Positions 5,528-32,447 are shown, counted from the stretch's first letter. The stretch: 32,447 bases of DNA from Candidatus Micrarchaeia archaeon (GCA_046753405.1 JBHHTN010000001.1:1-32447); one strand, 5' to 3'. The notes: generated from the sequence alone by a model not told the origin. Numbers and translations are program-made.

Positions 5528-5962
5528 GTGAAAAAAACAGCGATTCCGCAGCACTTGGAAGAGTACTTGGAAGCCTTGTGGGTGCTTCAAATTGAAGACA
5601 AGGCAAAAACTGTTAAAACCAACCAAATTGCCAGATTATTGGAAGTTAAAGCTTCAAGTGTAACCGAGGCCTTGGGCAAACTGGAAAAAAAAGGTTGGAT
5701 AAAGCACGAAAAGTATTACGGCGTGAGCCTCACCGGCAAAGGCAAGATGCAAGCTGAAAAGGCCATAAGACGCCACCGTTTGGCCGAAAAATTGTTGATT
5801 GACATCCTAAGAGTGAACCCCAAACACGTTGAAAAAACCGCGTGCGGGTTCGAGCACTACCTTGATAAGAACGTTGAAGCGCGTCTTTGCGAAATCTTAA
5901 ACCACCCGAACAAATGCATTCACGGCAAAAATATTCCAAAAGGAAAATGCTGCAAAAAGTAA
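5528..5962 (+). CDS. DtxR/MntR-family metal-dependent transcriptional repressor
   Basis: 144 aa with a GTG start. Has an N-terminal wHTH (HLEEYLEALWVL...IARLLEVKASSVTEALGKLEKKGWI) and a metal-binding/dimerisation helix region (RRHRLAEKLL...FEH). There is no SH3-like domain. Confidence 0.85.
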   Translation: MKKTAIPQHLEEYLEALWVLQIEDKAKTVKTNQIARLLEVKASSVTEALGKLEKKGWIKHEKYYGVSLTGKGKMQAEKAIRRHRLAEKLLIDILRVNPKHVEKTACGFEHYLDKNVEARLCEILNHPNKCIHGKNIPKGKCCKK

Positions 5963-5982
5963 AGGTTTAAAAACACCTTAAC

Positions 5983-5997
5983 ACCTAATTTTTAGGT
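5983..5997. promoter_or_regulatory. candidate DtxR-family operator (ACCTAA-N3-TTAGGT inverted repeat)
   Basis: ACCTAATTTTTAGGT is a perfect 6-bp-arm palindrome. Its arms equal the outer half-sites of the DtxR/IdeR consensus TTAGGTTAGCCTAACCTAA. It lies between the repressor gene and the FTR1 permease gene and overlaps A/T-rich, TATA-like sequence. Confidence 0.35.
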
Positions 5998-6129
5998 AAC
6001 CCTAAAAATTTAAGTGATGTTTAATGGAAATCGGACTTGACGGAATACTTGGCCTTATGATTATCGGAGCAGTGCTGTGGGAAGTCCTCGAACACGGCGG
6101 GCTTTGAAAAATTAAAAGGTGCAACTGCT

Positions 6130-6957
6130 TTGGTATTATTCCTTGGGGAAAGTTTTCTTCCGTCTCTTCTTATAACTTTTCGCGAAACCTTGGAGGCCGC
6201 GCTGGTAATCGGCATAATCCTGGCTTTCTTGGAAAAAACGCGGAACTTCAAATACAACAAGCACGTTTACCTTGGCGCGGCAGGAGGAATAGTCGCAAGC
6301 CTTGTTTTAGGAGTGCTCTTCGGCGATATTTCGAAGGTCTTGCGCGGAGTAAGCGCGGAATTGTTTGAAGGCGGAGTGCTTCTTTTTGCAGCAGTGCTTT
6401 TGACTTGGATGATTTTATGGATGTTCAAACAAACACACATACGCCAAGAAATAGAAGGCAAAGTCAAAGTCGAACTTGACGAAGGGCATGCCGTCGGCCT
6501 TATGGCGTTCGTGTTCGTGTCGGTTTTCCGCGAGGGCATTGAAACGGTTGTTTTCTTGAACGCTGCGGCTTTTGCAGCAGAAGGCGCGTCTTTGACAGGC
6601 GCTGTAGCAGGAATAGCCGCCGCCGTAATACTGGCGTTTTTGTTGTTTGAAACCGCAATGCGAATTGACTTGAAGTTTTTCTTCAACGCCACAAGCATTT
6701 TGCTCGTTTTATTTGCAGCAGGACTTGTCTCGCACGCAGTGCATGAATTTGAAGAAGCCGGGGTTTTAGAAGAGCAACCTCCTTTGTGGGACACAAAAGC
6801 TCTTTTGGATGAAAAATCAGCACTTGGAAGCGTTTTCCGCGTTTTGTTAGGCTACGACGACCGACCAACTCTTTTTCAAGCAATAGGCTACGCGGGATAC
6901 ATTGTTTTAGTGGGCCTGGCGTTTTTGAACATAGATCGGCTGCACAAAATCATCTGA
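6130..6957 (+). CDS. FTR1/EfeU-family high-affinity iron permease
   Basis: 275 aa and multi-TM. Has two REXXE iron-binding motifs (FRETLEAALV near the N-terminus, FREGIETVVF mid-protein). Confidence 0.85.
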   Translation: MVLFLGESFLPSLLITFRETLEAALVIGIILAFLEKTRNFKYNKHVYLGAAGGIVASLVLGVLFGDISKVLRGVSAELFEGGVLLFAAVLLTWMILWMFKQTHIRQEIEGKVKVELDEGHAVGLMAFVFVSVFREGIETVVFLNAAAFAAEGASLTGAVAGIAAAVILAFLLFETAMRIDLKFFFNATSILLVLFAAGLVSHAVHEFEEAGVLEEQPPLWDTKALLDEKSALGSVFRVLLGYDDRPTLFQAIGYAGYIVLVGLAFLNIDRLHKII

Positions 6958-9447: not shown

Positions 9448-9912
9448 GTGGAACAAAGCACTAGAATCAAGGTTTTCTTCAAACAAAACGCCGCGGACTC
9501 TGAAGGAGAACGCGTGAAAAAAGCGGTTGAAGACGACTTGCAAATTCAACTGCAAAGCGTTAAAGTTGCAAGCGTTTACGAAGTGCGCGGGCTTGAAAAA
9601 AACGATTTTGAAGAAGTTGCAAGCAAGCTGTTCACAGACCCCTTAACGCAGGAATATGTTATTGGAACCCGAAAAGGAGAGGAATGCAACTGGGTTGTCG
9701 AAGTTTCTTTGAAAAAAGGCGTTACGGACAACGTTGCACGTACTGCCGTCATCGGAATAAAAGACGTTTTGAAAAAGGACTTGCCGTTGTCTGTGCGCGC
9801 TTTGAAGCAATACTCTTTTTCCGGTGAATTGTCCGAAGACCAAGTCAAAACAATCTGCAACGGACTTTTGGCAAACGAGCTGATTCAAAACTACAAGTAT
9901 TGGAAGTGTTGA
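9448..9912 (+). CDS. purS: tandem (duplicated) PurS-like subunit of FGAM synthase
   Basis: 154 aa, about twice the usual PurS length. Both halves follow the PurS pattern: IKVFFKQNAADSEGERV...LFTDPLTQEYVI and VVEVSLKKGVTDNVARTA...LLANELIQNYKY. Starts at GTG and sits immediately upstream of purL. Confidence 0.7.
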   Translation: MEQSTRIKVFFKQNAADSEGERVKKAVEDDLQIQLQSVKVASVYEVRGLEKNDFEEVASKLFTDPLTQEYVIGTRKGEECNWVVEVSLKKGVTDNVARTAVIGIKDVLKKDLPLSVRALKQYSFSGELSEDQVKTICNGLLANELIQNYKYWKC

Positions 9913-19140: not shown

Positions 19141-20298
19141 TTAAGGTTGCACCCATTCTATTTCGTAGTACTCGTACTTGCTTTTGGGCACTTGGATTCT
19201 TTTTACTCGGTAGTAGGTGATTGCTGTTTCGCGGTCGCATATTGCAAGTACGAGGTCCAAACCGAGTTTTTTCGCTTTTTGAATTGCCTGGGCAAGCTCT
19301 GCACCGCCTATTTCCTCTTCTTCTGAAAGCGCAAGCATTACGAATTTGGGCCCTCCGTTTTTAGGCGTTTCAATCTCGGCTTTTTTTCGGTGGTAAAGCA
19401 AGAAGTCAAGTTCCGCGGCAACTTCTTTTTTAACCCCTGGAATTGCCAAAATAAACGTTTTTTTAACTCCGTGGGCGACTCTTATTGCGCGGGCCCACTC
19501 CGAGATAAGAAGCTTGGCTTCGCGGGGAAATACCTGGATTACGTGTTTTGAGTGCATCCACTGCGAGGTTTCAAGGGTTGGCAAAGCCCCTGGAAAGTAA
19601 AGCCGAAAGTGCGTGCCGAATTTGAATCCTGTTTTCAGCACGAACCCGTGCAGGCGCCAGTCTTCGTACACTTCGTAAAGAGACAAAAAGTCGCTTCTGC
19701 GCCTCAATGCTTCCTCGACGAGTTTTTTGCGGTTTATGTTGAGCTTGAACTTGCAGTGCTTCATTAAAAACAGGGTTTCGTACGCGTCGAGTTTAAGGAA
19801 CTTTCCGTGCTTTTTCGCCTTGTAGGTTCCGTACTGACCAAACCAATGCTCTTCATAAATTTCCTTGCCTTCCTCATGGTCGATTATGCTCATAAGGTCG
19901 TCGGAGAAAAACAATCCCCTGCTTTTTACATTGAATTTTTTGAAGTCTCCACTTGGATATTTTATCACCGGACTTCGACCGTAGTTTTTAACGGCTTCCT
20001 TAATGGGACGCGGAATTATTCCTCGGTCGCGCCAGTCTCGAAAGCAAAAGTAGCGGGCCAAAAACTTTTTGTTGTCCTGGAATTTTTCCGCCAAGACGTT
20101 GAATGAAACCTCTTTTCCCTTAAAATTGCAGGAAGCGTTGCGCACGTCAATCAAGTATAACGCTTCCTCTGGCAAAAGCTGCAACTGTGTTTTTTTTCCC
20201 TGGTATTCGACTCCGAAAAAACCCCGGTCAAGTGCCTGCACGCTGATAAGGTCGCGCACTATTACTTTTTTGTCTTCGTACTCAAAAGAAACGGCCAT
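19141..20298 (-). CDS. endA: tRNA-splicing endonuclease, multi-unit fused form
   Basis: 385 aa. The catalytic unit is YEDWRLHGFVLKTGFKFGTHFRLY...HSKHVIQV...AHGVKKTFILAI. A degenerate unit precedes it (ARYFCFRDWRDRGIIPRP). A further C-subdomain-like segment follows it (DFLLYHRK...KFVMLAL...LVLAICDRETAITYYRV). Confidence 0.85.
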   Translation of the reverse strand: MAVSFEYEDKKVIVRDLISVQALDRGFFGVEYQGKKTQLQLLPEEALYLIDVRNASCNFKGKEVSFNVLAEKFQDNKKFLARYFCFRDWRDRGIIPRPIKEAVKNYGRSPVIKYPSGDFKKFNVKSRGLFFSDDLMSIIDHEEGKEIYEEHWFGQYGTYKAKKHGKFLKLDAYETLFLMKHCKFKLNINRKKLVEEALRRRSDFLSLYEVYEDWRLHGFVLKTGFKFGTHFRLYFPGALPTLETSQWMHSKHVIQVFPREAKLLISEWARAIRVAHGVKKTFILAIPGVKKEVAAELDFLLYHRKKAEIETPKNGGPKFVMLALSEEEEIGGAELAQAIQKAKKLGLDLVLAICDRETAITYYRVKRIQVPKSKYEYYEIEWVQP

Positions 20299-20384
20299 TT
20301 TTCAAACAACTATCTTTTGAATATTTTTTTTTCTTCTTAATGTTTAAAACGCCAAGTAGAGTAATAAAAGCGAGTGTTTGAACT

Positions 20385-20837
20385 ATGTCAAAAGTGTTTT
20401 CGACAAGGGCGCAGGCTGCCCTTGAGTATATGCTGATAATAGGCGTCAGCCTTGCAATTTTGCTGCCCTTGTGGCTTTACGCGAATTCATCAATTGAGGA
20501 CACAAAGGCAAGCTTGCAGATTGCCTACGCTCGAAACAGCCTCAATAAAATCGGGGAAGCTGCTGACGCTGCTTTTGTTGAAGGGCCCCCTGCAAAGTTC
20601 TCCCTTTACCTTACTTTCCCCCAGGGAATTGAAAGCACTTCGGTTTCAGGACGGGAAGCTTCAATGCGGCTTAACTTGCTGGACCGGCCAGGATCGGTAT
20701 CCGACGTTTTCGTTTCAACAATCGGAAACATGACAGGAACGCTTCCAACGCAAAGCGGGCCTTTGAGGCTCTTTGTCAAAGCAGAGTACAATTCGACAAA
20801 CGGAGAGAACTACGTTAACATCACCGAAACCCCTTGA
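20385..20837 (+). CDS. prepilin-like protein with class III signal peptide
   Basis: MSKVFSTRA|QAALEYMLIIGVSLAILLPLWLY has a basic residue and small residue at -2/-1, Q at +1 and E at +5, then a hydrophobic helix. 150 aa. Confidence 0.75.
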   Translation: MSKVFSTRAQAALEYMLIIGVSLAILLPLWLYANSSIEDTKASLQIAYARNSLNKIGEAADAAFVEGPPAKFSLYLTFPQGIESTSVSGREASMRLNLLDRPGSVSDVFVSTIGNMTGTLPTQSGPLRLFVKAEYNSTNGENYVNITETP

Positions 20838-20878
20838 AATAAACGCGGAGATAAATTTTGGAAACGAAGGCTTTCTCG

Positions 20879-21289
20879 ATGAAATTTCTTGGAACGCGGG
20901 GACAACCCTCAGTTGAAATGATTACGATGGTAAGCTTGCTCGTCATAATCCTAGCCGGCTTTTCACTTGTCGCCTTCCAAAACTACAGCGAGTTTGTTGT
21001 TGACCGTCAATTCATTGAAGCGAAGGAAGTTGCAAGGCAAGTTGCAACGGAGATAAACACTGCAATAAGCGTTGGCTCCGGGTACGGCAGAATGTTCGCC
21101 TTGCGCGAAAGTTTTTACGGAGGCGAAGACTACGTGGTGAGAACTCTTCCAAACGATCAGGTGGTTGAAATAACTTGGGGTTCCTACAGGTACACCGTTC
21201 CCATTCTTTCATCAAACGTTGAAGAGAAAACGCTTGTAAACGGTAACAACACTATTTCTAATCAGGGAGGTCTGATAAAACTTGCGTGA
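20879..21289 (+). CDS. prepilin-like protein with class III signal peptide
   Basis: MKFLGTRG|QPSVEMITMVSLLVIILAGFSLVAF (RG, Q+1, E+5). I prefer ATG 20879 to the TTG at 20858. Confidence 0.7.
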   Translation: MKFLGTRGQPSVEMITMVSLLVIILAGFSLVAFQNYSEFVVDRQFIEAKEVARQVATEINTAISVGSGYGRMFALRESFYGGEDYVVRTLPNDQVVEITWGSYRYTVPILSSNVEEKTLVNGNNTISNQGGLIKLA

Positions 21290-21890
21290 GAGCAAACGCG
21301 GACAAGTTTTCACAGGAGACTTTGTTTTAAGCGTATTCGTGTTCTTGATCATTGTAACCGTCGCAGGCGTTTTTTGGAACAATTTAAACGACAGCATAAC
21401 TGCTTCCGAAAACCGCAAAGACTTGGAGTTTGCAACACTTGTTGCATCGGAGTCCCTTATACGCACGTCAGGCAACCCCTTCAACTGGAGCAACGACAAC
21501 CTTAGCGCGGTAAAAAGCATCGGGCTGGCCGTCAACGCTCAAAACCAGTCTGCCGACAGCCACATCATCAACGCAAGCAAGGCAGTAATGCTTGTCAGGT
21601 TAATGGAAGACAATTACAGCTTCGCTAAAAATGTTTTAGGACTCGGAGCTTTTGAATTCGGGTTTTCAATAACAAACAAATCGGGACAAGTGGTGAACGC
21701 CTCGTGCGAAGTGGGGTGCTGGTGCGGAAGCCCTTGTTGGAAGTCGCTTAATTACTCGACGTTTGACAGCGTGCAGGCAGACGACGCGGCAGTAATCAGA
21801 CGTATTGCGATAATAGACGTTGCAATTGAAGGCGACTTTAGAACAAGGAAAGTCGTGAACGTAAACGTGTTTGGGTGGAAAGAACCGTGA
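21282..21890 (+). CDS. prepilin-like protein with class III signal peptide
   Basis: M(TTG)RESKRG|QVFTGDFVLSVFVFLIIVTVAGVFW. GGGAGG at 21265-21270 lies 11 nt upstream. It overlaps the previous gene by 8 nt and carries several N-X-S/T sequons. Confidence 0.65.
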   Translation: MRESKRGQVFTGDFVLSVFVFLIIVTVAGVFWNNLNDSITASENRKDLEFATLVASESLIRTSGNPFNWSNDNLSAVKSIGLAVNAQNQSADSHIINASKAVMLVRLMEDNYSFAKNVLGLGAFEFGFSITNKSGQVVNASCEVGCWCGSPCWKSLNYSTFDSVQADDAAVIRRIAIIDVAIEGDFRTRKVVNVNVFGWKEP

Positions 21891-24800
21891 AGAAAGGGTT
21901 GGTGTTTACCTTGGACGCTATTTTCGCGCTGCTTATACTGCTTGCAATTATTCCGCTTGTTGAAAACGCGTACGTGCAAAGCGTTTCCCCATCGCTCATA
22001 CACGAACAGTTGCACTTGCAGTCGGAAGACGTTTCAAACGTTCTTGTGAAAATAAAAACCGGGGAAGCACTCAACGAATCAACGGTACTGCAACAGCTAC
22101 TGACAGAGCAAAGAATAACTCAAGACGACATGAGCCTGCCGTTGATTGAAGTCATAGGAAGATTCTGGGCAGCCAACACCACTGCGGACCTGGCAATAGC
22201 CCGCGACATAATTCAAGACGTTGTTGGAAATCTCACGCCGAAAAGCCTGGGTTGGGCAACTTACTTCGACCAAGACCAGATTACCGCGAACTTTTCCCCG
22301 CTTAATCTTTCGTTGTACGGCACTGCGGCAAGCAAAAGAATAGTTTCAGGGTTTGAAAAAAACAAGACATTAAGCGGCTGCATTGCGCGAACGTTTCTTG
22401 AGAGGGCAATAGGAAAACAGGCGGCCAAGTACTACTTCTTCGGAGGATTCATAGGACAAGGAAACGTCTCTGCAACAGTCCGCGGCGTTCCCTCGGATGC
22501 CAACATAAGTTTGATGTATCTGGAAGCAAACTTCGGCGACAACTTCACGCTGTACGTCAACGGCAACCACTGCGCTAATTTAAGCAAAAGCCCGGGAAAC
22601 TATTCAGTTGACGCGTTCAGCTTAAACTCTTCAAGTTACCCGCAGTGCATTGGAAACGTTTCCAAAGGAGCAGACAACAATTTTTCAATAAACTTTTCAG
22701 GAAATGATTTGGAAAAACAGTTCATCGGCGGCGGGTTCATAAAAATCGTGTACGACACCGGGCAGTTGTCTTACACTCAGGCAAACCTTTCACGGTATTA
22801 TTTTCCAGGGGTAAGCGGAATAATAAACAACTACGATTCATTCTACGTTCCTGGAAACGTAACCAACATAACCGCGTTCATTGACTACTACAGCAACTAC
22901 AGCGTTTACTTCAACGTGGGCAACACCACGATTTTCAACCGTTCAGGAAGCACCTCAAGACAGAACTTCACCATAACCAACGCGTCTTTTGCCTCAAACT
23001 TCAGCGACGACTACTCTCAACTTGGAGGCCAAAGCGTGCCAATAAGAATCGGCATCGACCCCTTGGCGTTTGTAAACAGTACAACAATAGGAAACGCGGA
23101 CGTCATTCTAATCACCGACTTGTCGGGAAGCATGTCCTGGCGCATTGACTCCAACACTGCAAGCGGAGCAAACACGTCTTGCACCGAATGCTCGGACTCC
23201 TGCATCAACGCGTCCAACGTGGTCCGCATAAACAAGGCAAAATGCGTTGACTTGGAGTTCGTAGACATTATTCTGAACAACAGCGGAAACCGCGTAGGAC
23301 TCACGGGCTTCAACACCAACGCCGACACGTCTTACACTGGGCTTACCGCGGACAAAACAAGTCTGCAAAGCCAAATAAACGGGTACTCCGCAGGCGGGGG
23401 AACATGCGTTTGCTGTTCAATAAACCGCGCGTACGACTTGATCCAAGAGCCGTACTACGAAACCCTTGTGCCAAGGCAAAATGAGTGGAGTTACAACACG
23501 TCTTTTGCAACAAGCGCGCCTTGGAACGACGCCGAAGGAGACAACTGGACAACCATGAACTACAACGACTCATTGTGGTCGAAGGCAAACGCGTCATTGG
23601 GCTTTGGAGGAGTTGACAGCGACATCGGAAACAACCTCGTCTTGTTGTCAAACGAACAGCTCAACGCATCCGAATACGAATTGGCATACGGAAGCGTCAT
23701 ATCGGGAACCTTGGGGGACACAAACAAGTCGGATGGCACAAACGCCCTTGTTTTGAACGAAAGCCTGGTTCTTCCCCCTGTGTATTACTACAATGAAAGC
23801 GAGGGACAGTCGTCAACAACTTCTACTTCCTGGCAGGAAAAAACAAGACTTGATTTTTCACCGATAGACGGCAACTACTTGATTTTGGTTACCGCTGAAG
23901 TGCAAGGCTCTTCCAGCTCCCGCGACGTACAGCTTAGAATGACTATTGACGGCCAAACACACTCCGAAATCAACTGGGAACCGGACATATCCTCAAACTG
24001 GGAACCTTTCGTTTCCCACAAACTACGTTCACTTGACTCCTCTTCACACAACATTACAATAGAATACTCCTCAGAGAACTCCGGACAAACTACGAGAATA
24101 CGCAACGCGAGAATAAGCGCAATAAGACTTGACGAGTACGTCTTGAACGAATCGGAATCCGAAAGCACGTTAACTTCCACGTATGCTGACAAAACGAATG
24201 TTTCCTTCACACCTTCAAGCGACGGGTACTACCTTGTAATTGCGACAGCGGAAGTAAAGGCGGGTTCAACCACATCCAGCATCGGCGCAAGGCTTCAAAT
24301 CGGAAGCACCACTTACGACGAGGTAAACATTGAAGGCGAAAACAGCAACGAGTACAAACCCTTCGCCTCGCATTCAATTTACCAGTTTACTGCAAGTCCT
24401 CAAACAGTGCACCTGCAAGCATTCTCCGAAGGAGGAAGTGCAAGCAAAAGAATAAGACGCGCGAGAATTTCGGTTGTGCGACTGACCGACTTTCTGAATT
24501 ACCAGTACCAAGAAAGCCTTTCCCGCACAACAACAACTTCAACCTCGTGGGTGAACAAAACAAGTCTGTCATTTACGCCTGCAAGTGAGGAAGACTACTT
24601 GATTGTTGCAAGCGCGCAAATCGATTACCCGACCCCGTCAAACTCCCGTTATCCAATGGCCAGAATGCTCGTCGACGGCGTCGAATACGGGTATATGCTC
24701 TGGGGCCTCTCAGACTCAAGCGACAAGTACAACTTTTTCTCAACAAAAAACATTTCGCTTTCCGCCTCACCACACACAATTACCATTCAATACCGAACAC

Positions 24801-26689
24801 GTTCTTCAAGCTACGCAATTGGAATGTCAAACGCGAAAATCTCCGCAACGCGCGGGGGAACAACGCAGCAGTACCGCCTTGAAACCCGCTTCAACTCAAC
24901 AACCCTTTCAGATGACCAGAACGTCAGTTCAATAAACGCCACCATAAGGTTCAATTCAACGCAGGCAGACAACTATTCCATAAGGTTATACGACTATTCA
25001 TCGAACGCTTGGAACACCCAGTACTGTTCAACCGCACAAGTAGTACTGGCAAACCAATGGACAACAATGGACTGCAACGTCACTGCAAACGCTTCAAACT
25101 TCGTTTCCGCAAACGGAAAAGTGCAGGCAAGCCTAAACGCGCAAGCCTCTTCCGCCTACAACAACGTAAGCATAGACTTCGTGCAGTACTACCTTGAAAC
25201 AACAAGCGGAAACTACTACTTCAGAAAAAACTTTTCAGTTGCAAACGCATCCGACATCATTTACCTTAACCTCTCAGTGTACTCTGACGACCGAGCAGAA
25301 ATTTACTTAAACGGCGTGCTTGTAGACAACGACACACAACCACACCCCGCCTCGTACTGGAACCGCCAAATAAACGCGTCTTCAAGCTACCTAAACACCG
25401 GAGAAAACGTTTTGGCCGTCAAATTACGCAACCACGATTCAACAAGCGCAAAATTTGACTTGGAACTCAACGCGTCAAAAAGAAGAAACAAGTACATAAT
25501 CGTGATGACCGACGGAATCACTGGCTATTCTTGCGCTTCAAGCGGCTGCAGCGGCAACAACACCGCAGGAACATGGGATTGCGGAGGCGGCTCCGGAGAC
25601 TGCACCGGAAGCCAGTGCGACTGCGCCATTGACAACGCGAACTACAGCGCGTGCCGTGCAAGAACACTGCCCTCAACGCTTTACTCCGTGGGCTTTGGAC
25701 CCATTTCAACCTGTCAAAACGGAAACCGAACCCTTCAAAACATCGCCACCTGCGGGGGAGGGTCGTACTATTCAAGTTCAAACGCGTCAGAACTTCAAAA
25801 CATTTACAGGAGCATTGCAGAACAAATAGTAAACCAAAGCATCGTCTTCAGAACGCAAACAGCAAACGTTTCAGCAAACGTTTCAAACATGACTTTGTAC
25901 CCGTCTTCTTACCTTGAATTCTCCTATCAGCCTTTTGCACAACCCCCCCAATACAGGCAGATAAAGCTGTCCGTGGAAACCGACGCTTTTGCAAACTGCA
26001 CTGGAAGCTTTTTTGTTCCCCCAGCAGACAGCATTGAAGAAGCAAAAATCACATCCTACTCCGAAGACTACTGGACAAGCATTGTAATAGCACGCAACGG
26101 TTCCAACCCGTGGGGCAGTGCGTTCAACCTTTCAGTTTACGGGCAAAACTACACGTTCCTGGGAGACCCGTTTGTAGTAAACATTCCAACAAACCTTTTG
26201 AAAACCAACGCCACCAACTACGTTAACATTTCAACCGGCGCAGACTCTGCAAATACAAGCTCACAGTGTTCAACCAATAACAAGGCCATTTACTCCTACC
26301 GTATCACCCTCCAGTCATTTCTCTCGCCGGTGTTCGCAAATTGTACCGGAAGAAACGTAAGCGTTTACTTCGACAAAGACAACGACGCAGTCTCCGACGG
26401 AAGCGTAAACATTGCAATCGGACAAACACCAGTAAACACAACCCTTGTAACACCCGACCAATTAACCCCCTCAACAAACGCTGCCGACTACGCACTACTG
26501 CAACTTTTAGACTCGCTTAACTTCGACAACCAGACAAACAGCATTCAAACAAGCACAGGTAGATCAGGAACAAGCCAAAACCCGATAGACTTGGAAATTC
26601 CAAGCACTCTGAAAGTTGACACAACCGTACTCTCCGACATTCCCTACATGTGGGGCCCTGCGGAAATACAAGTAAGCATGTGGACTTGA
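21875..26689 (+). CDS. giant (1604 aa) prepilin-like surface protein with an interrupted vWA/MIDAS domain; candidate filament-associated adhesin
   Basis: The N-terminus ...KKG|LVFTLDAIFALLILLAIIPLV is a prepilin-type signal. An alternative GTG at 21887 forms a GTGA overlap with the upstream stop. The vWA motifs are DLSGSMS (aa 415-421), VGLTGFN and GGGT (T510), then IIVMTDG (aa 1208-1214), LYSVGFG and GGGSYYSSSNASELQNIY. Confidence 0.85.
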   Translation: MERTVKKGLVFTLDAIFALLILLAIIPLVENAYVQSVSPSLIHEQLHLQSEDVSNVLVKIKTGEALNESTVLQQLLTEQRITQDDMSLPLIEVIGRFWAANTTADLAIARDIIQDVVGNLTPKSLGWATYFDQDQITANFSPLNLSLYGTAASKRIVSGFEKNKTLSGCIARTFLERAIGKQAAKYYFFGGFIGQGNVSATVRGVPSDANISLMYLEANFGDNFTLYVNGNHCANLSKSPGNYSVDAFSLNSSSYPQCIGNVSKGADNNFSINFSGNDLEKQFIGGGFIKIVYDTGQLSYTQANLSRYYFPGVSGIINNYDSFYVPGNVTNITAFIDYYSNYSVYFNVGNTTIFNRSGSTSRQNFTITNASFASNFSDDYSQLGGQSVPIRIGIDPLAFVNSTTIGNADVILITDLSGSMSWRIDSNTASGANTSCTECSDSCINASNVVRINKAKCVDLEFVDIILNNSGNRVGLTGFNTNADTSYTGLTADKTSLQSQINGYSAGGGTCVCCSINRAYDLIQEPYYETLVPRQNEWSYNTSFATSAPWNDAEGDNWTTMNYNDSLWSKANASLGFGGVDSDIGNNLVLLSNEQLNASEYELAYGSVISGTLGDTNKSDGTNALVLNESLVLPPVYYYNESEGQSSTTSTSWQEKTRLDFSPIDGNYLILVTAEVQGSSSSRDVQLRMTIDGQTHSEINWEPDISSNWEPFVSHKLRSLDSSSHNITIEYSSENSGQTTRIRNARISAIRLDEYVLNESESESTLTSTYADKTNVSFTPSSDGYYLVIATAEVKAGSTTSSIGARLQIGSTTYDEVNIEGENSNEYKPFASHSIYQFTASPQTVHLQAFSEGGSASKRIRRARISVVRLTDFLNYQYQESLSRTTTTSTSWVNKTSLSFTPASEEDYLIVASAQIDYPTPSNSRYPMARMLVDGVEYGYMLWGLSDSSDKYNFFSTKNISLSASPHTITIQYRTRSSSYAIGMSNAKISATRGGTTQQYRLETRFNSTTLSDDQNVSSINATIRFNSTQADNYSIRLYDYSSNAWNTQYCSTAQVVLANQWTTMDCNVTANASNFVSANGKVQASLNAQASSAYNNVSIDFVQYYLETTSGNYYFRKNFSVANASDIIYLNLSVYSDDRAEIYLNGVLVDNDTQPHPASYWNRQINASSSYLNTGENVLAVKLRNHDSTSAKFDLELNASKRRNKYIIVMTDGITGYSCASSGCSGNNTAGTWDCGGGSGDCTGSQCDCAIDNANYSACRARTLPSTLYSVGFGPISTCQNGNRTLQNIATCGGGSYYSSSNASELQNIYRSIAEQIVNQSIVFRTQTANVSANVSNMTLYPSSYLEFSYQPFAQPPQYRQIKLSVETDAFANCTGSFFVPPADSIEEAKITSYSEDYWTSIVIARNGSNPWGSAFNLSVYGQNYTFLGDPFVVNIPTNLLKTNATNYVNISTGADSANTSSQCSTNNKAIYSYRITLQSFLSPVFANCTGRNVSVYFDKDNDAVSDGSVNIAIGQTPVNTTLVTPDQLTPSTNAADYALLQLLDSLNFDNQTNSIQTSTGRSGTSQNPIDLEIPSTLKVDTTVLSDIPYMWGPAEIQVSMWT
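23783..24859 (+). repeat. three tandem divergent ~120-aa protein repeats inside the giant ORF
   Basis: Units are aa 637-756, 757-875 and 876-995. Each begins with [YL].ES....(T)STSW..KT.l.F(S/T)P...g.YL(I/V)(L/V/I).(T/S)A(E/Q)(V/I) and ends with ...h.it(I/L)(E/Q).....s.....i(R/S)NA(R/K)IS..R. The similarity is at protein level only and the DNA has diverged. Confidence 0.7.
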
Positions 26690-26694
26690 AAAAA

Positions 26695-27708
26695 ATGAAA
26701 AACAACAAAACCTTAATGGAAAAACGCCGCGGAGTTTTTTACTCTGTGATAACCCTCATGCTTCTTGCACCCTTAGTTGCCTACTCCTTGTTTTACCTTG
26801 AAACCACTCAAACAAACGTCAAAGAAGTAAGCGTAAAAATACGCGCCGACGAACTATCACACTACACTGAAAGCGCGGAATTGGACCTTGAACGATTCAT
26901 GCGCATCTCTTCCAAAAACGCGTTGATTGCCCTTGTAAAATACGAGGAAGACCACAATGCAAGCGTTTCAAACGCATCATGCATACTCTCCTCATTGTCG
27001 TACTACGGCAACGTTTCAAACCAGTCTTGCACCGGAACAACGCTTTCTGCAAACATTTCGCTTCCCACCAACAACACTTTCCTCCTTTATTGGATAAACA
27101 GAACAGTGACCGCCGGAGCAAAATTCGGTTTCAACACCAACATTTCACTGCAAAACGCGTCTTTCAACATGAGCAACAGCTTCAACGTAAGCTATACGCT
27201 TGTAATGCAGATCAATTCGACAGAAAAAAGCAACCTCATGAACTTTTCAAAAACAGTAAGCAAAACAATCAACAGCTCCATAATCAACCTGGACGACCCA
27301 TTGTTCCTCTCCAAAACACAAGGCTTAATCCGCCGAAGCATAACAACAAGCAACGCGACCCAAGGAGGAACAAACCTCTCAGCGTTCGTACGCGGAAAGT
27401 ACTACCGCTCTTCCGAAAACTCCTCCAGCTTCTTAGACCGCCTCGAAGGCAGAACGCGCCTTTCCGGAAAATACGGAAACACAACCGGAATTGAAACCTT
27501 CGTATACGGCCCGGAACTCGAATCATACGACTTGCAAGTCAAAAACCAGTCGTCAATAGACTTCCAATACTTCAACGAATCCCTGCCAATAGGACAAGGG
27601 TGCACAATAAACGAAATGTCATGCGACGAGTTCTGGTGGTTCAAAATGGATTCATCAACTGCAAACAAGTACGGCGTAACACCAAACTGCACGAAGTGCC
27701 CAACATAA
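26695..27708 (+). CDS. prepilin-like, sequon-rich secreted protein
   Basis: MKNNKTLMEKRRG|VFYSVITLMLLAPLVAYSLFY. ATG 26695 lies 6 nt after the giant ORF stop. It has about 20 N-X-S/T sequons and a C-terminal 4-Cys motif (CTINEMSC...CTKC). Confidence 0.6.
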   Translation: MKNNKTLMEKRRGVFYSVITLMLLAPLVAYSLFYLETTQTNVKEVSVKIRADELSHYTESAELDLERFMRISSKNALIALVKYEEDHNASVSNASCILSSLSYYGNVSNQSCTGTTLSANISLPTNNTFLLYWINRTVTAGAKFGFNTNISLQNASFNMSNSFNVSYTLVMQINSTEKSNLMNFSKTVSKTINSSIINLDDPLFLSKTQGLIRRSITTSNATQGGTNLSAFVRGKYYRSSENSSSFLDRLEGRTRLSGKYGNTTGIETFVYGPELESYDLQVKNQSSIDFQYFNESLPIGQGCTINEMSCDEFWWFKMDSSTANKYGVTPNCTKCPT

Positions 27709-27762
27709 AAAGAAGGCATTTAATAACGAAAAAGCAGTGAACTAAAAAGAAAACAAAAAAAA

Positions 27763-28578
27763 GTGGGTTCAAACCAAATGCCGCCTGCAACAAAAGAAGA
27801 CGTTGAAACCGTGATAGACCGCCTCTACGACTACGTGAAAATTAACAAACACGTGAAAGCCAAAGAAGCCGCAGGCGCCCTGGGGCTGCCCTCCACACAA
27901 GTCGAAAAACTCGCAGTATTACTTGAAGAAAGCAACCTAATCAGAATACGCTACTCTCTGAGAGGAATTGAACTTATAGCAGCCGAAGCCCAAAAAGTAA
28001 AAAAACAAAAAATAACATCCGAAAAAGAGAGCGTGTTGCATCAAAGCGCCCGCTTGTTGGAACAAGACGTGATGAAATCAGAAAACGTCATGCAATTCAT
28101 GGAACGCGACATCCTGCGCAGGCTTGCACAGGCCGAAAACATAATAGACGAATTGGAACGAAAAGACTCGTTCTCACTGGAAGACGTAAAATTTTTGCAA
28201 AAAGAAATAGAAACAATAGAATCACAAATGCAACACTTCAGCTCCGAAATAGCCGTTCTTAAAAAAACAGAAAACGACTTCGAGGAAAAAATTCAACACT
28301 TCAAAAACAACATTCAGCAACTAGAACACGACAGCGAAAAACGCAAAAAACCCTCACCACAACTGCTCGCTCCACTTGTGAGGCTCATCCAAAAAATAGC
28401 AGACGCAATTTCAACCGCGGTAAATGCGAAAAAACCAAGACCAGAAAACGCACTGCCATCCGAATCAACCCCCCTCTTAACACAACACACAGAAAAACAA
28501 GAAAGAAAACCCAAAAAAACCAAGGCTAAAAGAAAACGCGCTAAAAGGCAAAAAAACAAGAAAAAAGTGAGTAAATGA
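27763..28578 (+). CDS. wHTH-like N-domain, long coiled coil and polybasic C-tail protein (function unknown)
   Basis: The N-terminus DVETVIDRLYDYVKINKHVKAKEAAGALGLPSTQVEKLAVLLEESNLIRIRY looks winged-helix-like. The central roughly 130 aa are heptad-like and E/K/Q-rich. The tail is KPKKTKAKRKRAKRQKNKKKVSK. Its stop overlaps the ATPase ATG as ATGA. An alternative ATG lies at 27778. Confidence 0.6.
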   Translation: MGSNQMPPATKEDVETVIDRLYDYVKINKHVKAKEAAGALGLPSTQVEKLAVLLEESNLIRIRYSLRGIELIAAEAQKVKKQKITSEKESVLHQSARLLEQDVMKSENVMQFMERDILRRLAQAENIIDELERKDSFSLEDVKFLQKEIETIESQMQHFSSEIAVLKKTENDFEEKIQHFKNNIQQLEHDSEKRKKPSPQLLAPLVRLIQKIADAISTAVNAKKPRPENALPSESTPLLTQHTEKQERKPKKTKAKRKRAKRQKNKKKVSK

Positions 28579-30071
28579 ACGTCCTTGAAAAGTACGGCAT
28601 TCAAAGCGAGGGAATAATCGCAGACATAATCATAAGTGAAAAACCCGAAGAATACGTAAACACCTACGAACTGAAACACACGCGCGTAAAACAGGCAACC
28701 AACGTCGTATTGGACTACATGAAAGAAAAAATCATCGACGCTATAAACATAAAACTATCAGAAATGATGGACCCGCGAGAGAACGAAAACGTCAGAGAAA
28801 GAATCGCCGAAAAAGCCCGTGAAATAATCAAGCAAGAACTTGGAGGGCTGTCAAAACAAGAAGAACACGTGATAATAGGACGACTACTTCAGGAAATGAT
28901 GGGCTTAGGCGAAATGGAACTCGTTCTTGCAGACGAAAAACTGGAAGAAATAGTCATAAACAGCGCAAACGAGCCTGTGTGGGTCTACCACAAAAAACAC
29001 GGCTGGCTCAAAACAAACCTCATGCTAAAAAGCGAGGAACAAATACACAACTTTGCCTCAATAATAGGACGCAAAGTAGGAAAACAAATAACCACCCTCG
29101 ACCCGTTAATGGACGCCAACCTCTTAACCGGAAGCAGAGTCAACGCCACCCTCTTTCCCATTTCAAGCAAAGGCAACAGCATGACCATCAGAAAATTCCG
29201 AAAAGACCCTTGGACAATAATCAACTTCATCGACCCTGCAATAAACACGCTCAGCGTGGAGGCAGCAGCCCTGTTTTGGACCGCCATCCAATACGAACTA
29301 AACATCCTAGTAGGCGGCGGAACCGCAAGCGGAAAAACCTCGTTTCTAAACGCTATTTTAGTGTTCACCCCGCCCAACCAGCGCGTCATCTCCATAGAAG
29401 ACACCAGGGAACTGACTTTACCCGACTTCCTTCACTGGACCCCAATGGCAACACGACAACCAAACCCCGAAGGAAAAGGCGAAGTCAGCATGCTTGACTT
29501 AATGGTAAACTCCCTGAGAATGAGGCCCGACAGAATAATACTTGGAGAAATCAGAAGAAAACGCGAGGCAGAAGTATTATTCGAAGCAATGCACACCGGA
29601 CACTCCGTTTATTCAACCCTGCACGCAGACGAAGCCTCACAAGTAAGAAGCCGGCTCATAAGCCCGCCAATTGAATTGCCTGAAACAGTGATAAGCGCCC
29701 TCCACCTAATATCCGTGCAATACCGGCAAAGAAGAACAGGAATAAGACGCACCTTCGAACTCACCGAAGTCTTACCCGACGAAAACGGAGTGAGCATGAA
29801 CACAATCCACCGCTGGAACGCTCGAACCGACAAACTCGAAAAAGTAGGCGAGTCAATAAGAATAACAAACGAACTGACACTGCACACCGGAATGACAATA
29901 AAGGAAATCAGAGCGGAACTCACTGAAAAAGAAACCATTCTATCCCAAATGCTAAAACAAAAAATACACGACGTCAACTCAGTAGGCCGCGTAATCGCCG
30001 CGTACTACCGCCAACCAGACAAAGTGAGCGAGCTTGCCGCAAAAGGAAAAAGCCTCATGAAAATAGCATAA
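28575..30071 (+). CDS. type IV filament assembly ATPase (FlaI/ArlI / TadA / VirB11-GspE superfamily)
   Basis: 498 aa. Has Walker A (VGGGTASGKTSFLNA), an Asp box (SIEDTREL), Walker B (RPDRIILGEIR) and a His box (GHSVYSTLHA). Confidence 0.92.
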   Translation: MNVLEKYGIQSEGIIADIIISEKPEEYVNTYELKHTRVKQATNVVLDYMKEKIIDAINIKLSEMMDPRENENVRERIAEKAREIIKQELGGLSKQEEHVIIGRLLQEMMGLGEMELVLADEKLEEIVINSANEPVWVYHKKHGWLKTNLMLKSEEQIHNFASIIGRKVGKQITTLDPLMDANLLTGSRVNATLFPISSKGNSMTIRKFRKDPWTIINFIDPAINTLSVEAAALFWTAIQYELNILVGGGTASGKTSFLNAILVFTPPNQRVISIEDTRELTLPDFLHWTPMATRQPNPEGKGEVSMLDLMVNSLRMRPDRIILGEIRRKREAEVLFEAMHTGHSVYSTLHADEASQVRSRLISPPIELPETVISALHLISVQYRQRRTGIRRTFELTEVLPDENGVSMNTIHRWNARTDKLEKVGESIRITNELTLHTGMTIKEIRAELTEKETILSQMLKQKIHDVNSVGRVIAAYYRQPDKVSELAAKGKSLMKIA

Positions 30072-30084
30072 AGATGTTTTCGAA

Positions 30085-30972
30085 ATGAGTCAAAGAATTC
30101 CACTAAGCATTCTTCCGACAAAGGTCCTGCTAAACTTCTCCCAAAAATTCATAAGCGCGGGCAACTACGTCCGCAACCTATCGCCAACCCTCGAAGAAGA
30201 CCTCGTACAGGCACGCATACGAATTTCAAGCAGGGAATACGCATCAGCAAGCACGATAAACGCGGCACTTTACACCGCGATATTTGCATTTCTCGGCTTT
30301 GCAATAACAAACAGAGTAACCGACTTCAAAAGCCCCGAACAAGCCCTCGCAACCGGATTGCTGTTGGGACTAGTAATAGGAGCGGGAATGCTCCTTACAA
30401 CAATATTCTACCCAAAAATAACTGCGATGCGAAGATCGCGGGAAATAGAACGCGAACTCATACCCGCAACAAGACAACTTTTAATCGAATTAAAATCAGG
30501 AGTCCCGCTTTTCAACGCCATGGCAAGCGTAAGCATAGACTACGGAAAAGTCTCAAACGAATTCAAAGAAATAACCAAGAAAATAAACAGCGGAGTCCCC
30601 GAGTTAGACGCCTTGGCCGATGCAACGCGCGAAAGTCCTTCAAAGCAATTTAGAAAAGTCCTCTGGCAAAGTTCAAACGCCCTCAAAGTAGGCTCCAACG
30701 TTGCAAACGCGCTTGAGGGAATACTCAAAGAACTTGAAAATGAAAAAATATCCCAAATACACAAGTACGGCCAGGAACTCTCCCCCTGGACAATGATCTA
30801 CATGATGAGCGCGGTAATCCTACCCTCCCTTGGAATAACCATGATGATAGTCATAAGCTCCTTTCTGAGTATAAGCATACCAAAAATAATCCTGCCGGCA
30901 ATACTCGCACTACTCCTTGGATTCCAAATATTCTTCATAAACTTCGTTAACACCAGAAGACCGGCGATATAA
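30085..30972 (+). CDS. T2SS-F domain platform protein (TadB / FlaJ N-half-like)
   Basis: 295 aa with a single T2SS-F-type helical cytoplasmic domain (ELIPATRQLLIELKSGVPLFNAMASV...ALEGILKELENEK) flanked by TM segments. Confidence 0.85.
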   Translation: MSQRIPLSILPTKVLLNFSQKFISAGNYVRNLSPTLEEDLVQARIRISSREYASASTINAALYTAIFAFLGFAITNRVTDFKSPEQALATGLLLGLVIGAGMLLTTIFYPKITAMRRSREIERELIPATRQLLIELKSGVPLFNAMASVSIDYGKVSNEFKEITKKINSGVPELDALADATRESPSKQFRKVLWQSSNALKVGSNVANALEGILKELENEKISQIHKYGQELSPWTMIYMMSAVILPSLGITMMIVISSFLSISIPKIILPAILALLLGFQIFFINFVNTRRPAI

Positions 30973-30973
30973 C

Positions 30974-32002
30974 ATGCACCATGTCTACCTGCAAATAACC
31001 TCGCTTCTGCCACGATCTGCAACTGCCAAAATAAAAAAACTAATGGTGCAAAGCGGAATAGACAGCTTAAGCGCACGCACCTACCTAGGGTTTACCATAT
31101 TCTTTGCAGTTTCAATAGCTCTCATCGTATTCTTCCTCTCCCCTTTCGTCATAAAAGACGCGCACCTGGTACTACTGCTAAGCGCAGGCAGCCTTGCAGG
31201 CATCCTCGGCACAACCTACCTCTTACTCTCCTTGAACGTAGACTCGCGCTCAAGAGAAATAGAAGAATTCCTCCCAGACAGCCTTCAGTTGATTTCATCC
31301 AACATACGCGCGGGAATGACCCTTGAAAACGCCATTTGGAGCGCCGGCAGACCCGAGTTTGGACACTTAAAAGACGAAATACGCAAAGTAAGCGCGGACA
31401 CCTTCGGGGGAAAAAGAATAGAAGACGCGTTAGACAAAATGACAAACCGCGTCAACTCAAAAATAGTGCAAAGAACAATCAAACTCATAACAGAAGGCAT
31501 ACGCCTCGGAGGAGAAATGGCCCCGCTTTTAGACGAAGTTTCAAACGACATAAAAAGCACCCAGCAACTGCAAAAAGAAATAATCACAACAACAACAACT
31601 TACGCGATATTCATAACATTCGCCGCAGTAGTAGCCTCCCCCCTACTGTTCTCCGTTTCAAGCTTCTACAGTCAAATGAACGAAGAACTACTCGGAAAAC
31701 AACTAGAACAAAGCCAGAAAACCGACTTTTCAAGCCTTCCCTCCTCCGGCATACCCTCAATAGGCCTTGGAAAAAAAGGCGCCAACCCCGAAGAAAAAAT
31801 AAGCTCAGAGGAAATACGCCAATTCTCCTTCAGCGCAATAGCAATAACAAGCTTCTTCGCCGCCCTAATCCTAAGCACTATGACCCGCGGAAGCGCCAAA
31901 GAAGGCCTAAAATACGCATTCATATACGCAGCAATAGCAATTGTAATATACACAACAATCCTCGGACTGCTATCAGGCGCCCTAGGAGGCATAATTAGCT
32001 AA
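30974..32002 (+). CDS. T2SS-F domain platform protein (TadC / FlaJ C-half-like)
   Basis: 342 aa with a single T2SS-F domain (FLPDSLQLISSNIRAGMTLENAIWSA...LLDEVSNDIKSTQQLQKEI) and TM segments. The ATG is 1 nt after the upstream stop and in a different frame. Confidence 0.85.
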   Translation: MHHVYLQITSLLPRSATAKIKKLMVQSGIDSLSARTYLGFTIFFAVSIALIVFFLSPFVIKDAHLVLLLSAGSLAGILGTTYLLLSLNVDSRSREIEEFLPDSLQLISSNIRAGMTLENAIWSAGRPEFGHLKDEIRKVSADTFGGKRIEDALDKMTNRVNSKIVQRTIKLITEGIRLGGEMAPLLDEVSNDIKSTQQLQKEIITTTTTYAIFITFAAVVASPLLFSVSSFYSQMNEELLGKQLEQSQKTDFSSLPSSGIPSIGLGKKGANPEEKISSEEIRQFSFSAIAITSFFAALILSTMTRGSAKEGLKYAFIYAAIAIVIYTTILGLLSGALGGIIS

Positions 32003-32055
32003 AAAACTCCAAAAAAAAAGCAGTTTTTAGCAAAAGCTTTAAAAAGCCGCCTTCC

Positions 32056-32080
32056 TTTTTTTCTAAAAACAGTATTTAAA
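32056..32080 (+). promoter_or_regulatory. T7 terminator followed by TATA-like box ahead of the terminal pilin gene
   Basis: A T7 run at 32056-32062 follows the platform gene. TATTTAAA at 32073-32080 lies about 25-32 nt upstream of ATG 32105. Confidence 0.3.
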
Positions 32081-32104
32081 CCTAAAAAGGTGAGATAGTA
32101 AAAA

Positions 32105-32447
32105 ATGAAAAGAGGACAATCCGCGCTAGAATATCTCGTTACTTATGGTTGGGCCATACTTGCAATCGTAATCATTGCAGGGCTTTTATGGGCCTTTGGA
32201 ATATTCAACCCTCAAACCTTTGCAAGTTCAAGCGCTTGCACTGAAGGAGCAAGCTTTTCCTGCACAGCAGCAGACAGCGTTTACTACGCAAACGGAACAC
32301 TTCTGTTAACTCTTGGAAACAAAGTAGGGTCAACAGTTAGCAACGTTTACATGGTAAGCACTACGTACAACAACGGAACAGCAATAACACACGACAACAT
32401 CTGTACAACAAGCTTGGCGGCAAACGGAAAAACCAGTTGCTCTTCAG
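32105..32447 (+). CDS. archaeal type IV pilin with canonical class III signal peptide (3' end outside the window)
   Basis: Not in the ORF track because no stop falls inside the window. ATG 32105 gives MKRG|QSALEYLVTYGWAILAIVIIAGLLWAF..., the classic archaeal pilin N-terminus. AGGTGA at 32088-32093 lies 11 nt upstream. Confidence 0.8.
   Translation, partial: MKRGQSALEYLVTYGWAILAIVIIAGLLWAFGIFNPQTFASSSACTEGASFSCTAADSVYYANGTLLLTLGNKVGSTVSNVYMVSTTYNNGTAITHDNICTTSLAANGKTSCSS

Follow-up and report, generated by a model that had tools for sequence, protein, structure and literature searches.

How DPANN archaea locate their hosts and stay attached to them has yet to be settled, with pili among the long-standing suspects, and a gene cluster in a Candidatus Micrarchaeia archaeon raises the question in concrete form: what does the cluster build, and to what would its product attach? 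The stretch of DNA that we analysed, called the window below, comprises 32,447 nucleotides (nt; GCA_046753405.1 JBHHTN010000001.1:1-32447). The cluster occupies positions 20385-32447, where the open reading frames (ORFs) of the window give ten closely spaced genes, all on the plus strand, which we designate g1 to g10 (coordinates below refer to the plus strand unless marked as minus). We propose that this chromosomal locus encodes an adhesive type IV pilus of a kind conserved across DPANN, a reading that we draw from sequence comparison and to which we would assign a probability of about 0.75. An initial annotation, made from the sequence alone, had spoken of eleven genes, although its own list likewise held ten items; every product on that list was found on the plus strand, and the description of the products as co-directional and tightly packed holds. 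From g1 to g9 the spacing is operon-like, with neighbouring genes overlapping by 4-16 nt or separated by gaps of 1-54 nt, and a 102-nt spacer lies ahead of g10.

Three of the genes would supply the assembly machinery. The product of g7 (28575..30071; 498 amino acids, aa) is an assembly ATPase of the T2SSE/VirB11 superfamily (Pfam T2SSE, E 1e-30) with archaeal N- and C-terminal domains, and its Walker A motif, Asp box, Walker B motif and His box align with those of Archaeoglobus fulgidus GspE2 (afGspE), FlaI and CpaF. The platform proteins g8 (30085..30972; 295 aa) and g9 (30974..32002; 342 aa) have one T2SSF domain each (Pfam T2SSF, E 6e-16 and 1e-12). The first aligns with residues 37-246 of the 484 residues of UpsF and the second with residues 290-466 of UpsF and 189-458 of ArlJ, and by these alignments g8 corresponds to the N-terminal half and g9 to the C-terminal half of the two-domain archaeal platforms; the split into two genes is kept in every related locus seen. 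The FlaI/TadA-type ATPase and the two single-domain type II secretion system (T2SS) F proteins of the initial annotation are hence borne out by the profile matches. No exact copy of g7 is on record in public assemblies. Many g7 orthologues (677-687 aa; P0034, P0043, P0099 and P0103 among them) carry an intein (PF14890) after the equivalent of residue ~277, for example in the loci L011 (10001-12034) and L012 (2215-~5000); the copy in the window is intein-free.

Six proteins, g1 to g5 and g10, begin with a class-III-type N-terminus in which [KR][GA]^ (with ^ the predicted processing site, from which residues are numbered) is followed by a hydrophobic stretch of ~20 residues, and the motif is kept in their orthologues, in agreement with the six prepilin-like genes described initially. 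Both g1 (20385..20837; 150 aa; RA^QAALEY) and g2 (20858..21289; RG^QPSVEM; 143 aa if translation starts at TTG 20858, 136 aa from ATG 20879) are small minor-pilin-like proteins with Q at +1 and E at +5, and g1 orthologues with the same motif are present in 10 Micrarchaeota loci and also in Aenigmarchaeota and Woesearchaeota. The minor-pilin-like g3 (21282..21890; 202 aa; RG^QVFTGD) has its acidic residue at +6, as does g4, and contains nine N-glycosylation sequons; in other lineages its counterpart is a longer protein of ~375 aa. In g5 (26692..27708; 338 aa from ATG; RG^VFYSV), also minor-pilin-like, neither +5 nor +6 is acidic, and 23 sequons occur in the 352-aa ORF that opens at GTG 26650 (6.5 per 100 aa). 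The predicted major pilin, g10 (32105->32447), is cut off by the end of the window after 114 codons. Its N-terminus, MKRG^QSALEYLVTYGWAILAIVIIAG, shares Q at +1 and E at +5 with g1 and g2 and is the canonical MKRGQSALEY pilin start that had been noted after a T-run and TATA-like box; as GQSALEYLVTYGWAILAIVII it is near-invariant in Micrarchaeota, and it is recognisable in Aenigmarchaeota as GQTAMEYLMTYGWAIL. Full-length orthologues of g10 have 144-157 aa. A PDB sequence search with g10 gave weak or chance matches only, and the Pilin_N/DUF1628 model of haloarchaeal PilA-type pilins was not matched (E 0.099). N-glycosylation sequons number 4.5-6.5 per 100 aa in g3-g5 as against 0-0.7 in the cytoplasmic and membrane proteins g6-g9, a difference consistent with g3-g5 being extracellular glycoproteins.

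The largest product of the cluster is g4 (21875..26689; 1604 aa; KG^LVFTLD, with D at +6), which contains 74 N-glycosylation sequons. Judged by its sequence and by the structure model of a homologue, g4 is a modular pilin with a von Willebrand factor A (vWA) domain, a complete metal ion-dependent adhesion site (MIDAS) motif (DxSxS, T, D) and an inserted cassette peculiar to its lineage, which upholds the earlier description of a vWA-bearing, TadG-like, prepilin-like giant. An N-terminal helix and a beta-sandwich region are followed by the vWA domain, split by an insertion, and by C-terminal beta domains. The N-terminal part of the vWA domain (aa 407-523; 23093..23443) contains D415-x-S417-x-S419 and T510 of the MIDAS, and the C-terminal part (aa 1204-1320; 25484..25834) contains the strand 'YIIVMTDG', with MIDAS residue D1213, and a Cys-rich loop. 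The Pfam VWA_2 match (aa 411-525, E 1.8e-4) is sub-threshold, and the vWA assignment is confirmed by the family alignment and by structure. In the alignment of g4 with short-form homologues, D415, S417, S419, T510 and D1213 are invariant, and from these residues metal and ligand binding are predicted.

The g4 family numbers 179 matches across DPANN and Altiarchaeota, and the counts per feature given here come from the 120 that were listed. The common form has ~890-930 aa and longer forms carry extra domains; for many of the 120, Pfam VWA or VWA_2 matches had been precomputed. The N-terminal motif, here [KR][GAS]^ followed by a hydrophobic stretch, is found in 109 of them, with D at +6 in 88 and E in 8. 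The conserved acid of this family, like that of g3, thus stands at +6, as opposed to +5 in g1, g2 and g10 and in bacterial and Epd pilins.

The insertion within the vWA domain (aa 524-1203, ~680 aa; 23444..25483), delimited by alignment with the short forms and by segment BLAST, runs from the helix after the MIDAS threonine up to the 'IIVMTDG' strand, and it is entirely absent from the short-form homologues; another homologue has an insertion at a second site. At its two ends lie modules (aa 524-640 and aa 997-1203) that share 45-52% identity with the nearest orthologue. The second of them, a beta-sandwich resembling GH114_assoc (27.5 bits on the g4 insertion, Pfam cut-off 22), is common to 39 of the 120 homologues. 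Between the two modules lies the variable cassette (aa 641-996; 23795..24862), composed of three tandem repeats of ~120 aa (pairwise repeat alignments, z = 16-35). This cassette has no BLAST-detectable relative among the 120 listed members of the family, and the nearest g4 orthologue has ~440 unrelated residues in its place. The insertions are nested, the cassette of three ~120-aa repeats lying within an insertion that itself lies within the vWA domain. In several homologues (P0172, P0178, P0185, P0187, P0194 and P0196) the module equivalent to aa 997-1203 is in turn split by a further insert of ~170 aa. Glycan binding by the insert was considered and is not claimed, as the Pfam matches of sub-segments, GH114_assoc aside, amount to sub-threshold hints of beta-sandwiches or carbohydrate-binding modules.

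In the AlphaFold2 (AF2) model of a short-form homologue (P0137; mean predicted local distance difference test score, pLDDT, 87.6), a helix of 46 residues at the N-terminus comes with beta-sandwich domains, a vWA fold and beta domains at the C-terminus. A Foldseek search with this model returned, among its top matches, PilB of Streptococcus sanguinis (7B7P, E 1e-10), a bimodular minor pilin with a vWA module; SpaC, Mfa5 and RrgA, which are pilus tip adhesins, were also retrieved. At the level of sequence, the two halves of the g4 vWA domain correspond weakly to the two ends of 4RCK, a vWA protein, and the PDB search with g4 otherwise gave weak or chance matches only. Like PilB, and in the manner of the tip adhesins SpaC, RrgA, Mfa5 and PilY1, g4 joins a pilin helix to a vWA domain with a MIDAS. 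It differs from these proteins in being 2-4 times larger, in its extra beta-sandwich domains and in the insertions nested in its vWA domain, and identity is only 14-16%; the simplest account of the likeness between g4 and PilB is that vWA modules were joined to pilins on independent occasions.

The gene set as a whole is conserved. The closest relative locus (L001, on a 1.30-Mb contig) has, in order, a tRNA-splicing endonuclease gene on the minus strand, g1, g2, g3, g4 (1651 aa), g5, g6, the ATPase gene, two genes with T2SSF domains and one for a pilin of 144 aa, and since unrelated GrpE-DnaK-DnaJ genes come next, the cluster there ends with the pilin. In 11 further Micrarchaeota genomes g6-g7-g8-g9 are always colinear, g1-g5 are colinear or divergent, and a pilin gene is nearby. 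Loci reached through g4 homologues in Aenigmarchaeota (L016), Altiarchaeota (L017) and Woesearchaeota (L018) carry the same pilin-like operon, with two small genes, one gene for ~370 aa, a vWA gene for ~890 aa and one more gene; the gene that follows the vWA gene in the Woesearchaeota and Altiarchaeota loci is g5-like. In L016 and L017 this operon adjoins a run of genes for a winged-helix protein, T2SSE, T2SSF and T2SSF, and in L018 the ATPase cluster is ~8 kb away. Because the arrangement is syntenic in 12 Micrarchaeota loci and its core recurs in three other phyla, the pattern is not due to chance. Micrarchaeon Mia14 is not among the 11 loci obtained from the ATPase contig scan, and no direct match to MIA14_0170-0177 or MIA14_0252-0260 was made.

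Directly upstream of the ATPase gene, in 12 of 12 Micrarchaeota loci, stands g6 (27778..28578), whose stop overlaps the start of g7 by 4 nt and whose product is predicted to be a cytoplasmic accessory protein. Its AF2 model (pLDDT 71 overall, ~85-90 in the folded parts) comprises a winged helix (aa ~9-68), a helical hairpin or coiled coil (78-189), an amphipathic helix (198-217) and a disordered polybasic tail, and Foldseek retrieved winged helix-turn-helix domains only, as the earlier wording of a winged-helix/coiled-coil protein implied. A word-indexed search for homologues gave 14 matches, in Micrarchaeota only. Profile comparison reaches further: in Aenigmarchaeota and in Altiarchaeota, the protein encoded upstream of the ATPase has at its C-terminus a winged helix homologous to that of g6 (hhalign probability 96.7 and 95.2), and a similar N-terminal winged-helix module is visible next to the ATPase in the Woesearchaeota locus. 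Between phyla the module is shuffled among proteins. It is N-terminal and joined to a coiled coil in Micrarchaeota, N-terminal in Woesearchaeota (L018, 20524-20976), C-terminal after DUF2226 in Altiarchaeota (L017, 14888-15940) and C-terminal in a 184-aa protein of Aenigmarchaeota (L016, 6397-6951). A link between g6 and DUF2226 was rejected, as that domain belongs to the N-terminus of the altiarchaeal protein and not to g6; our literature search found no mention of DUF2226.

Reading of the sequence suggests two putative promoters. A TATA-like box, TTTAAAA (20343..20349), lies ~36-42 nt upstream of the g1 start and may, at the level of consensus, be the promoter of a g1-g9 operon. Ahead of g10, a run of seven T (32056-32062) is followed by a second TATA-like box, TATTTAAA (32073-32080), confirming the T-run and TATA-like box reported before the last pilin; by archaeal consensus the two together (32056..32080) are a putative terminator or attenuator and a separate promoter for g10. 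The spacer also contains a Shine-Dalgarno-like GGTGA motif 11 nt before the g10 ATG (32089-32104). As the TATA-like box is only ~25-32 nt from that ATG, g10 may be translated both from a near-leaderless transcript of its own and, through the Shine-Dalgarno motif, from operon transcripts that read through. A scan for sigma-70 promoters and intrinsic terminators found terminators not enriched, but its model is bacterial and not meaningful for an archaeon. Between 27001 and 32447, A strongly exceeds T on the coding strand (AT skew 0.26-0.49) and the GC skew is negative; in the left half of the window both trends are much weaker.

Taken as an adhesive pilus, the cluster would work as follows. A peptidase of the PibD/FlaK/EppA type, encoded elsewhere, would trim the short leaders of the six prepilins, and a g7 hexamer docked on g8 and g9 would lift the pilins out of the membrane. 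The products of g1-g5 would assemble first, as a priming or tip complex that displays g4 at the tip, and g5, which has no acidic residue, may serve as a cap-like subunit. The g10 pilin, abundantly expressed from its own promoter after the T-run, would then polymerise beneath them. At the tip, g4 would use its MIDAS site and inserted beta-sandwich modules to bind a ligand carried by a surface or a host cell, with specificity set by the swappable cassette. In the cytoplasm, g6 could act as a partner or regulator of the ATPase, perhaps tethered to the membrane by its amphipathic helix and polybasic tail. Attachment to a host by such a pilus is plausible.

Several points weigh against this interpretation. 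The pilus is predicted here from its genes. The Pfam model Class_IIIsignal (DUF361) scored below threshold (E 0.0023 for g1 and E 4 for g10), so that the prepilin calls derive from the N-terminal motif and its conservation in orthologues. No A24 prepilin peptidase was found in the 32-kb window, as the initial annotation had stated, or beside the syntenic locus L001, and processing of the prepilins is therefore assumed; Micrarchaeon Mia14 has a single FlaK-like peptidase, which is encoded elsewhere in its genome (PMC5498576). The structure model on which the g4 comparison draws is that of the homologue P0137 and not of g4 itself. The position of g4 at the tip, priming by g1-g5 and the role of g6 are proposed by analogy with bacterial minor pilins, PilY1 and PilB. 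Finally, attachment to a host and adhesion to surfaces or in biofilms would look the same in the sequence.

The initial annotation had also labelled the locus Tad/Epd-like, and that label stood only in part. Denise et al. (2019) give a split platform, a short major pilin and an adjacent TadZ/FlaH as features of such systems, and Q at +1 with E at +5 characterises the Epd pilins and EppA substrates of Methanococcus maripaludis (PMC3875500). By sequence, the locus fits in its split platform and in its Q+1/E+5 signature; it does not fit in its pilin of ~145 aa or in having no adjacent TadZ/FlaH. Its ATPase is overall no nearer to CpaF than to afGspE or FlaI. A second ATPase, FlaH/KaiC-like or TadZ/MinD-like, was not found in the window, where the upstream neighbour of g7 is g6; such a gene, like that of the peptidase, may lie elsewhere in the genome. 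Split platforms are also present in archaeal clades 2, 4A and 4B (PMC4858521; bioRxiv 10.64898/2026.04.22.720090), and hence the split is not unique to clade 1.

The ATPase gives a mixed signal. Compared at full length with solved structures, g7 scores best against afGspE (2OAP, 249 bits), followed by FlaI (191) and CpaF (172). Over the shared core it is 40% identical to afGspE (211 bits), 37% to FlaI (188 bits) and 34% to CpaF (178 bits), and neither core-only BLAST nor profile scores favour CpaF. Three local signatures of g7 are common to CpaF and are not found in afGspE or FlaI: the Walker A sequence GGT(A/G)SGKT, a longer TRxPNxEGxG loop, and LRMRP(D/E)RI. We built a neighbour-joining (NJ) tree from PDB-aligned afGspE, FlaI and CpaF, from PilT and PilB of two bacterial loci, and from representatives of DPANN and Altiarchaeota; a true reference from the Epd clade is not part of it. 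In this tree g7 and the DPANN/Altiarchaeota representatives are monophyletic in 75% of bootstraps, afGspE and FlaI (with representative P0383) group apart from them with 95% support, and a grouping of g7 with Tad/CpaF appears in 4%, a figure to be read against the small reference set. Among representatives at 50% identity, the nearest relatives of g7 outside Micrarchaeota come from uncultured DPANN and Altiarchaeota only. Phylogenetic placement of the ATPase, which the initial annotation had proposed as a check, has thus recovered a clade of its own, and its position relative to Epd and Tad, the clade of arCOG01819, is not settled by so small an NJ tree.

It is accordingly possible, and we hold it as a tentative alternative, that the locus lies outside the Epd/Tad-like group and represents an independent DPANN/Altiarchaeota lineage of archaeal type IV pili (T4P), with a platform split that either evolved on its own or goes back to an ancestor of several clades. 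The monophyly of the g7 clade, the comparable identity (34-40%) of g7 to CpaF, afGspE and FlaI alike, the other clades with split platforms, the long g10 and the missing TadZ/FlaH neighbour all speak for such a lineage. Against it stand the three signatures common to CpaF, the Q+1/E+5 signature as in EppA substrates, and the Micrarchaeota themselves: Golyshina et al. (2017) described two T4P systems in Micrarchaeon Mia14, with key components common to many Micrarchaea, and one of the two, which combines a 'CpaF family' ATPase with a pair of TadC genes, was assigned to the Methanococci/Thermococci clade 1 (PMC5498576). Some g7 orthologues are likewise named 'CpaF family' by NCBI. Without a true Epd reference, the g7 tree is not decisive for this alternative.

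The Epd-like pili, called System 1, are among the closest known systems. With the M. maripaludis Epd system (clade 1, Makarova et al. 2016) the locus shares one ATPase and two single-domain platform genes, several minor pilins and adhesin-like proteins, N-glycosylated pilins, here predicted from sequons, and a leader with G or A at -1, Q at +1 and E at +5 (in g1, g2 and g10). System 1, with its split platform, many pilins and adhesin-like proteins, is reported from methanogens and DPANN (Sivabalasarma and Albers 2026; bioRxiv 10.64898/2026.04.22.720090), and the two-TadC system of Mia14 is placed there. The differences are that the major pilin has ~145 aa with a globular part here, as against 74 aa in MMP1685 (the short type has ~60-75 aa and no globular domain); that one locus is found here, as against at least four in M. 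maripaludis; that no EppA, FlaH/MinD-type ATPase or transglutaminase gene is adjacent; and that the acid is shifted to +6 in g3 and g4 and missing from g5.

That the parts list mirrors the bacterial Tad (Flp) pilus, as had also been claimed, holds at the level of analogy. A single ATPase, two single-domain platforms, pseudopilins and a large vWA-containing TadG-like protein are found in both, and the three g7 signatures are shared with CpaF. The likeness does not extend to the pilins, as none of the TadE, TadF or Flp Pfam models scored on g1-g5 at E <= 0.01, nor to the remaining components, since Pfam and NCBIfam give no secretin (RcpA), TadZ, TadV, Flp or TadE/F match in the locus. In addition, g7 differs in its archaeal terminal domains and is overall not nearer to CpaF. 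The bacterial gene order is tadA-tadB-tadC. Here the order is ATPase, N-terminal half, C-terminal half, and according to Denise et al. TadB is the C-terminal half and TadC the N-terminal half. A further comparison is with afGspE and the euryarchaeal System 2 or Halo pili. Here afGspE provides the best full-length structure match of g7, and System 2 loci often contain several pilins and large adhesin-like proteins; unlike the present locus, System 2 has platforms described as encoded by single genes (bioRxiv 10.64898/2026.04.22.720090), the haloarchaeal PilA-type pilins are not matched here, and afGspE falls with FlaI, away from the g7 clade.

Whatever its lineage, the cluster might serve something other than an adhesive pilus. 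A short envelope pseudopilus for secretion or surface display, similar to a T2SS or to the Sulfolobus bindosome and presenting g4 and other proteins with class III signals, is unlikely. Five of the six pilin-like proteins are minor-pilin-like, as such a structure would have it, a role of archaeal type IV filament machineries in functionalising binding proteins that carry class III signals has been discussed (bioRxiv 10.64898/2026.04.22.720090), and g7 shows a partial match to the BasE model (139 bits). That score, however, is far under the cut-off of 1000, the locus encodes no substrate-binding proteins, and g10, a dedicated, separately promoted and extremely conserved protein, fits a polymerising major subunit. 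Slightly more improbable still is a pilus for DNA uptake, or for cell-to-cell passage of macromolecules between archaeon and host, with adhesion as such not its function. DPANN archaea depend on host-derived molecules. The authors of the Mia14 study have speculated on exchange through type IV pili (PMC5498576), yet no DNA-binding pilin, ComEC- or Ced-type channel or nuclease was found in or beside the locus, whose largest investment is the sequon-rich vWA adhesin g4. An archaellum or motility derivative has next to no chance of being the answer: the best NCBIfam match of g7 is indeed the FlaI equivalog model (NF058587), and several sources automatically name orthologues 'flagellar protein FlaI', but the score of 279.6 bits is well below the cut-off of 550, the platform is split and not ArlJ-like, the g7 clade stands apart from afGspE and FlaI, and no Pfam or NCBIfam match to ArlF/G/H/C/D/E/X, to archaellins or to a two-domain ArlJ was found in the window or in syntenic loci. 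On the low FlaI score, the split platform and the missing Arl accessory genes, the locus is by its gene content not an archaellum, and the initial statement that the window has no archaellum-specific genes stands.

An adhesive pilus of this kind does not alter the current picture of archaeal type IV filaments. T4P systems in Micrarchaeota and other DPANN are already catalogued, and the locus adds one more. Our literature search found no paper on the five-gene minor-pilin operon, on a modular vWA pilin with nested variable inserts, or on the winged-helix partner. What the locus offers is a concrete, conserved parts list, with a motor, a split platform, five minor pilins and a major pilin, and in g4 a specific candidate for the binding step, namely a sequon-rich vWA pilin, predicted at the tip, whose cassette differs even among close relatives. 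From this follow predictions that can be tested in co-cultures of cultivated Micrarchaeota, on the composition of the filament, on labelling of its tip and on the correlation between cassette and host. A bolder version, which we regard as doubtful, is that g1-g5, g6-g9 and the pilin constitute an ancestral attachment organelle of all DPANN and Altiarchaeota, that g4 determines host range through cassettes swapped at fixed hot spots in the vWA domain, and that g6 is a new motor component throughout the lineage. If so, close relatives among the symbionts would carry different, unrelated g4 cassettes, as in the receptor-binding proteins of phages.

The genomic setting is that of an archaeal chromosome. 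The best relatives of g7 (57-75% identity) all come from Micrarchaeota, Micrarchaeia or Norongarragalinales, and by these affinities the organism is a Micrarchaeota (DPANN) archaeon. Elsewhere in the window there are genes for TFB, FttA, ribosomal protein S8e, a proteasome subunit, Trm1 and the tRNA-splicing endonuclease, together with PurS/L/Q/M of de novo purine synthesis and homoserine dehydrogenase, a content that indicates an archaeal chromosome that is not extremely reduced. Of the initial suggestion of a reduced, possibly episymbiotic archaeon, the DPANN host is supported, and extreme reduction is contradicted by the purine and homoserine dehydrogenase genes. Origin of the locus from a mobile element was ruled out by the base composition, which is even along the window, by the housekeeping genes that flank the cluster and by the synteny with the tRNA endonuclease gene kept in L001. 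No tRNA genes or Rfam families were detected in the window.

The neighbouring genes have some features of their own. The tRNA-splicing endonuclease (19141-20298, minus strand; 385 aa) adjoins the pilus locus divergently, in the same arrangement as in L001, and contains two stretches of N-terminal-domain type and one catalytic domain. A three-unit architecture of this enzyme is reported for ARMAN/Micrarchaeota. The PurS ORF (9448-9912) contains two PurS-like stretches and is a tandem fusion. Further upstream, a gene for a DtxR-type iron repressor lies just ahead of a gene for an FTR1 iron permease (5528-6957).

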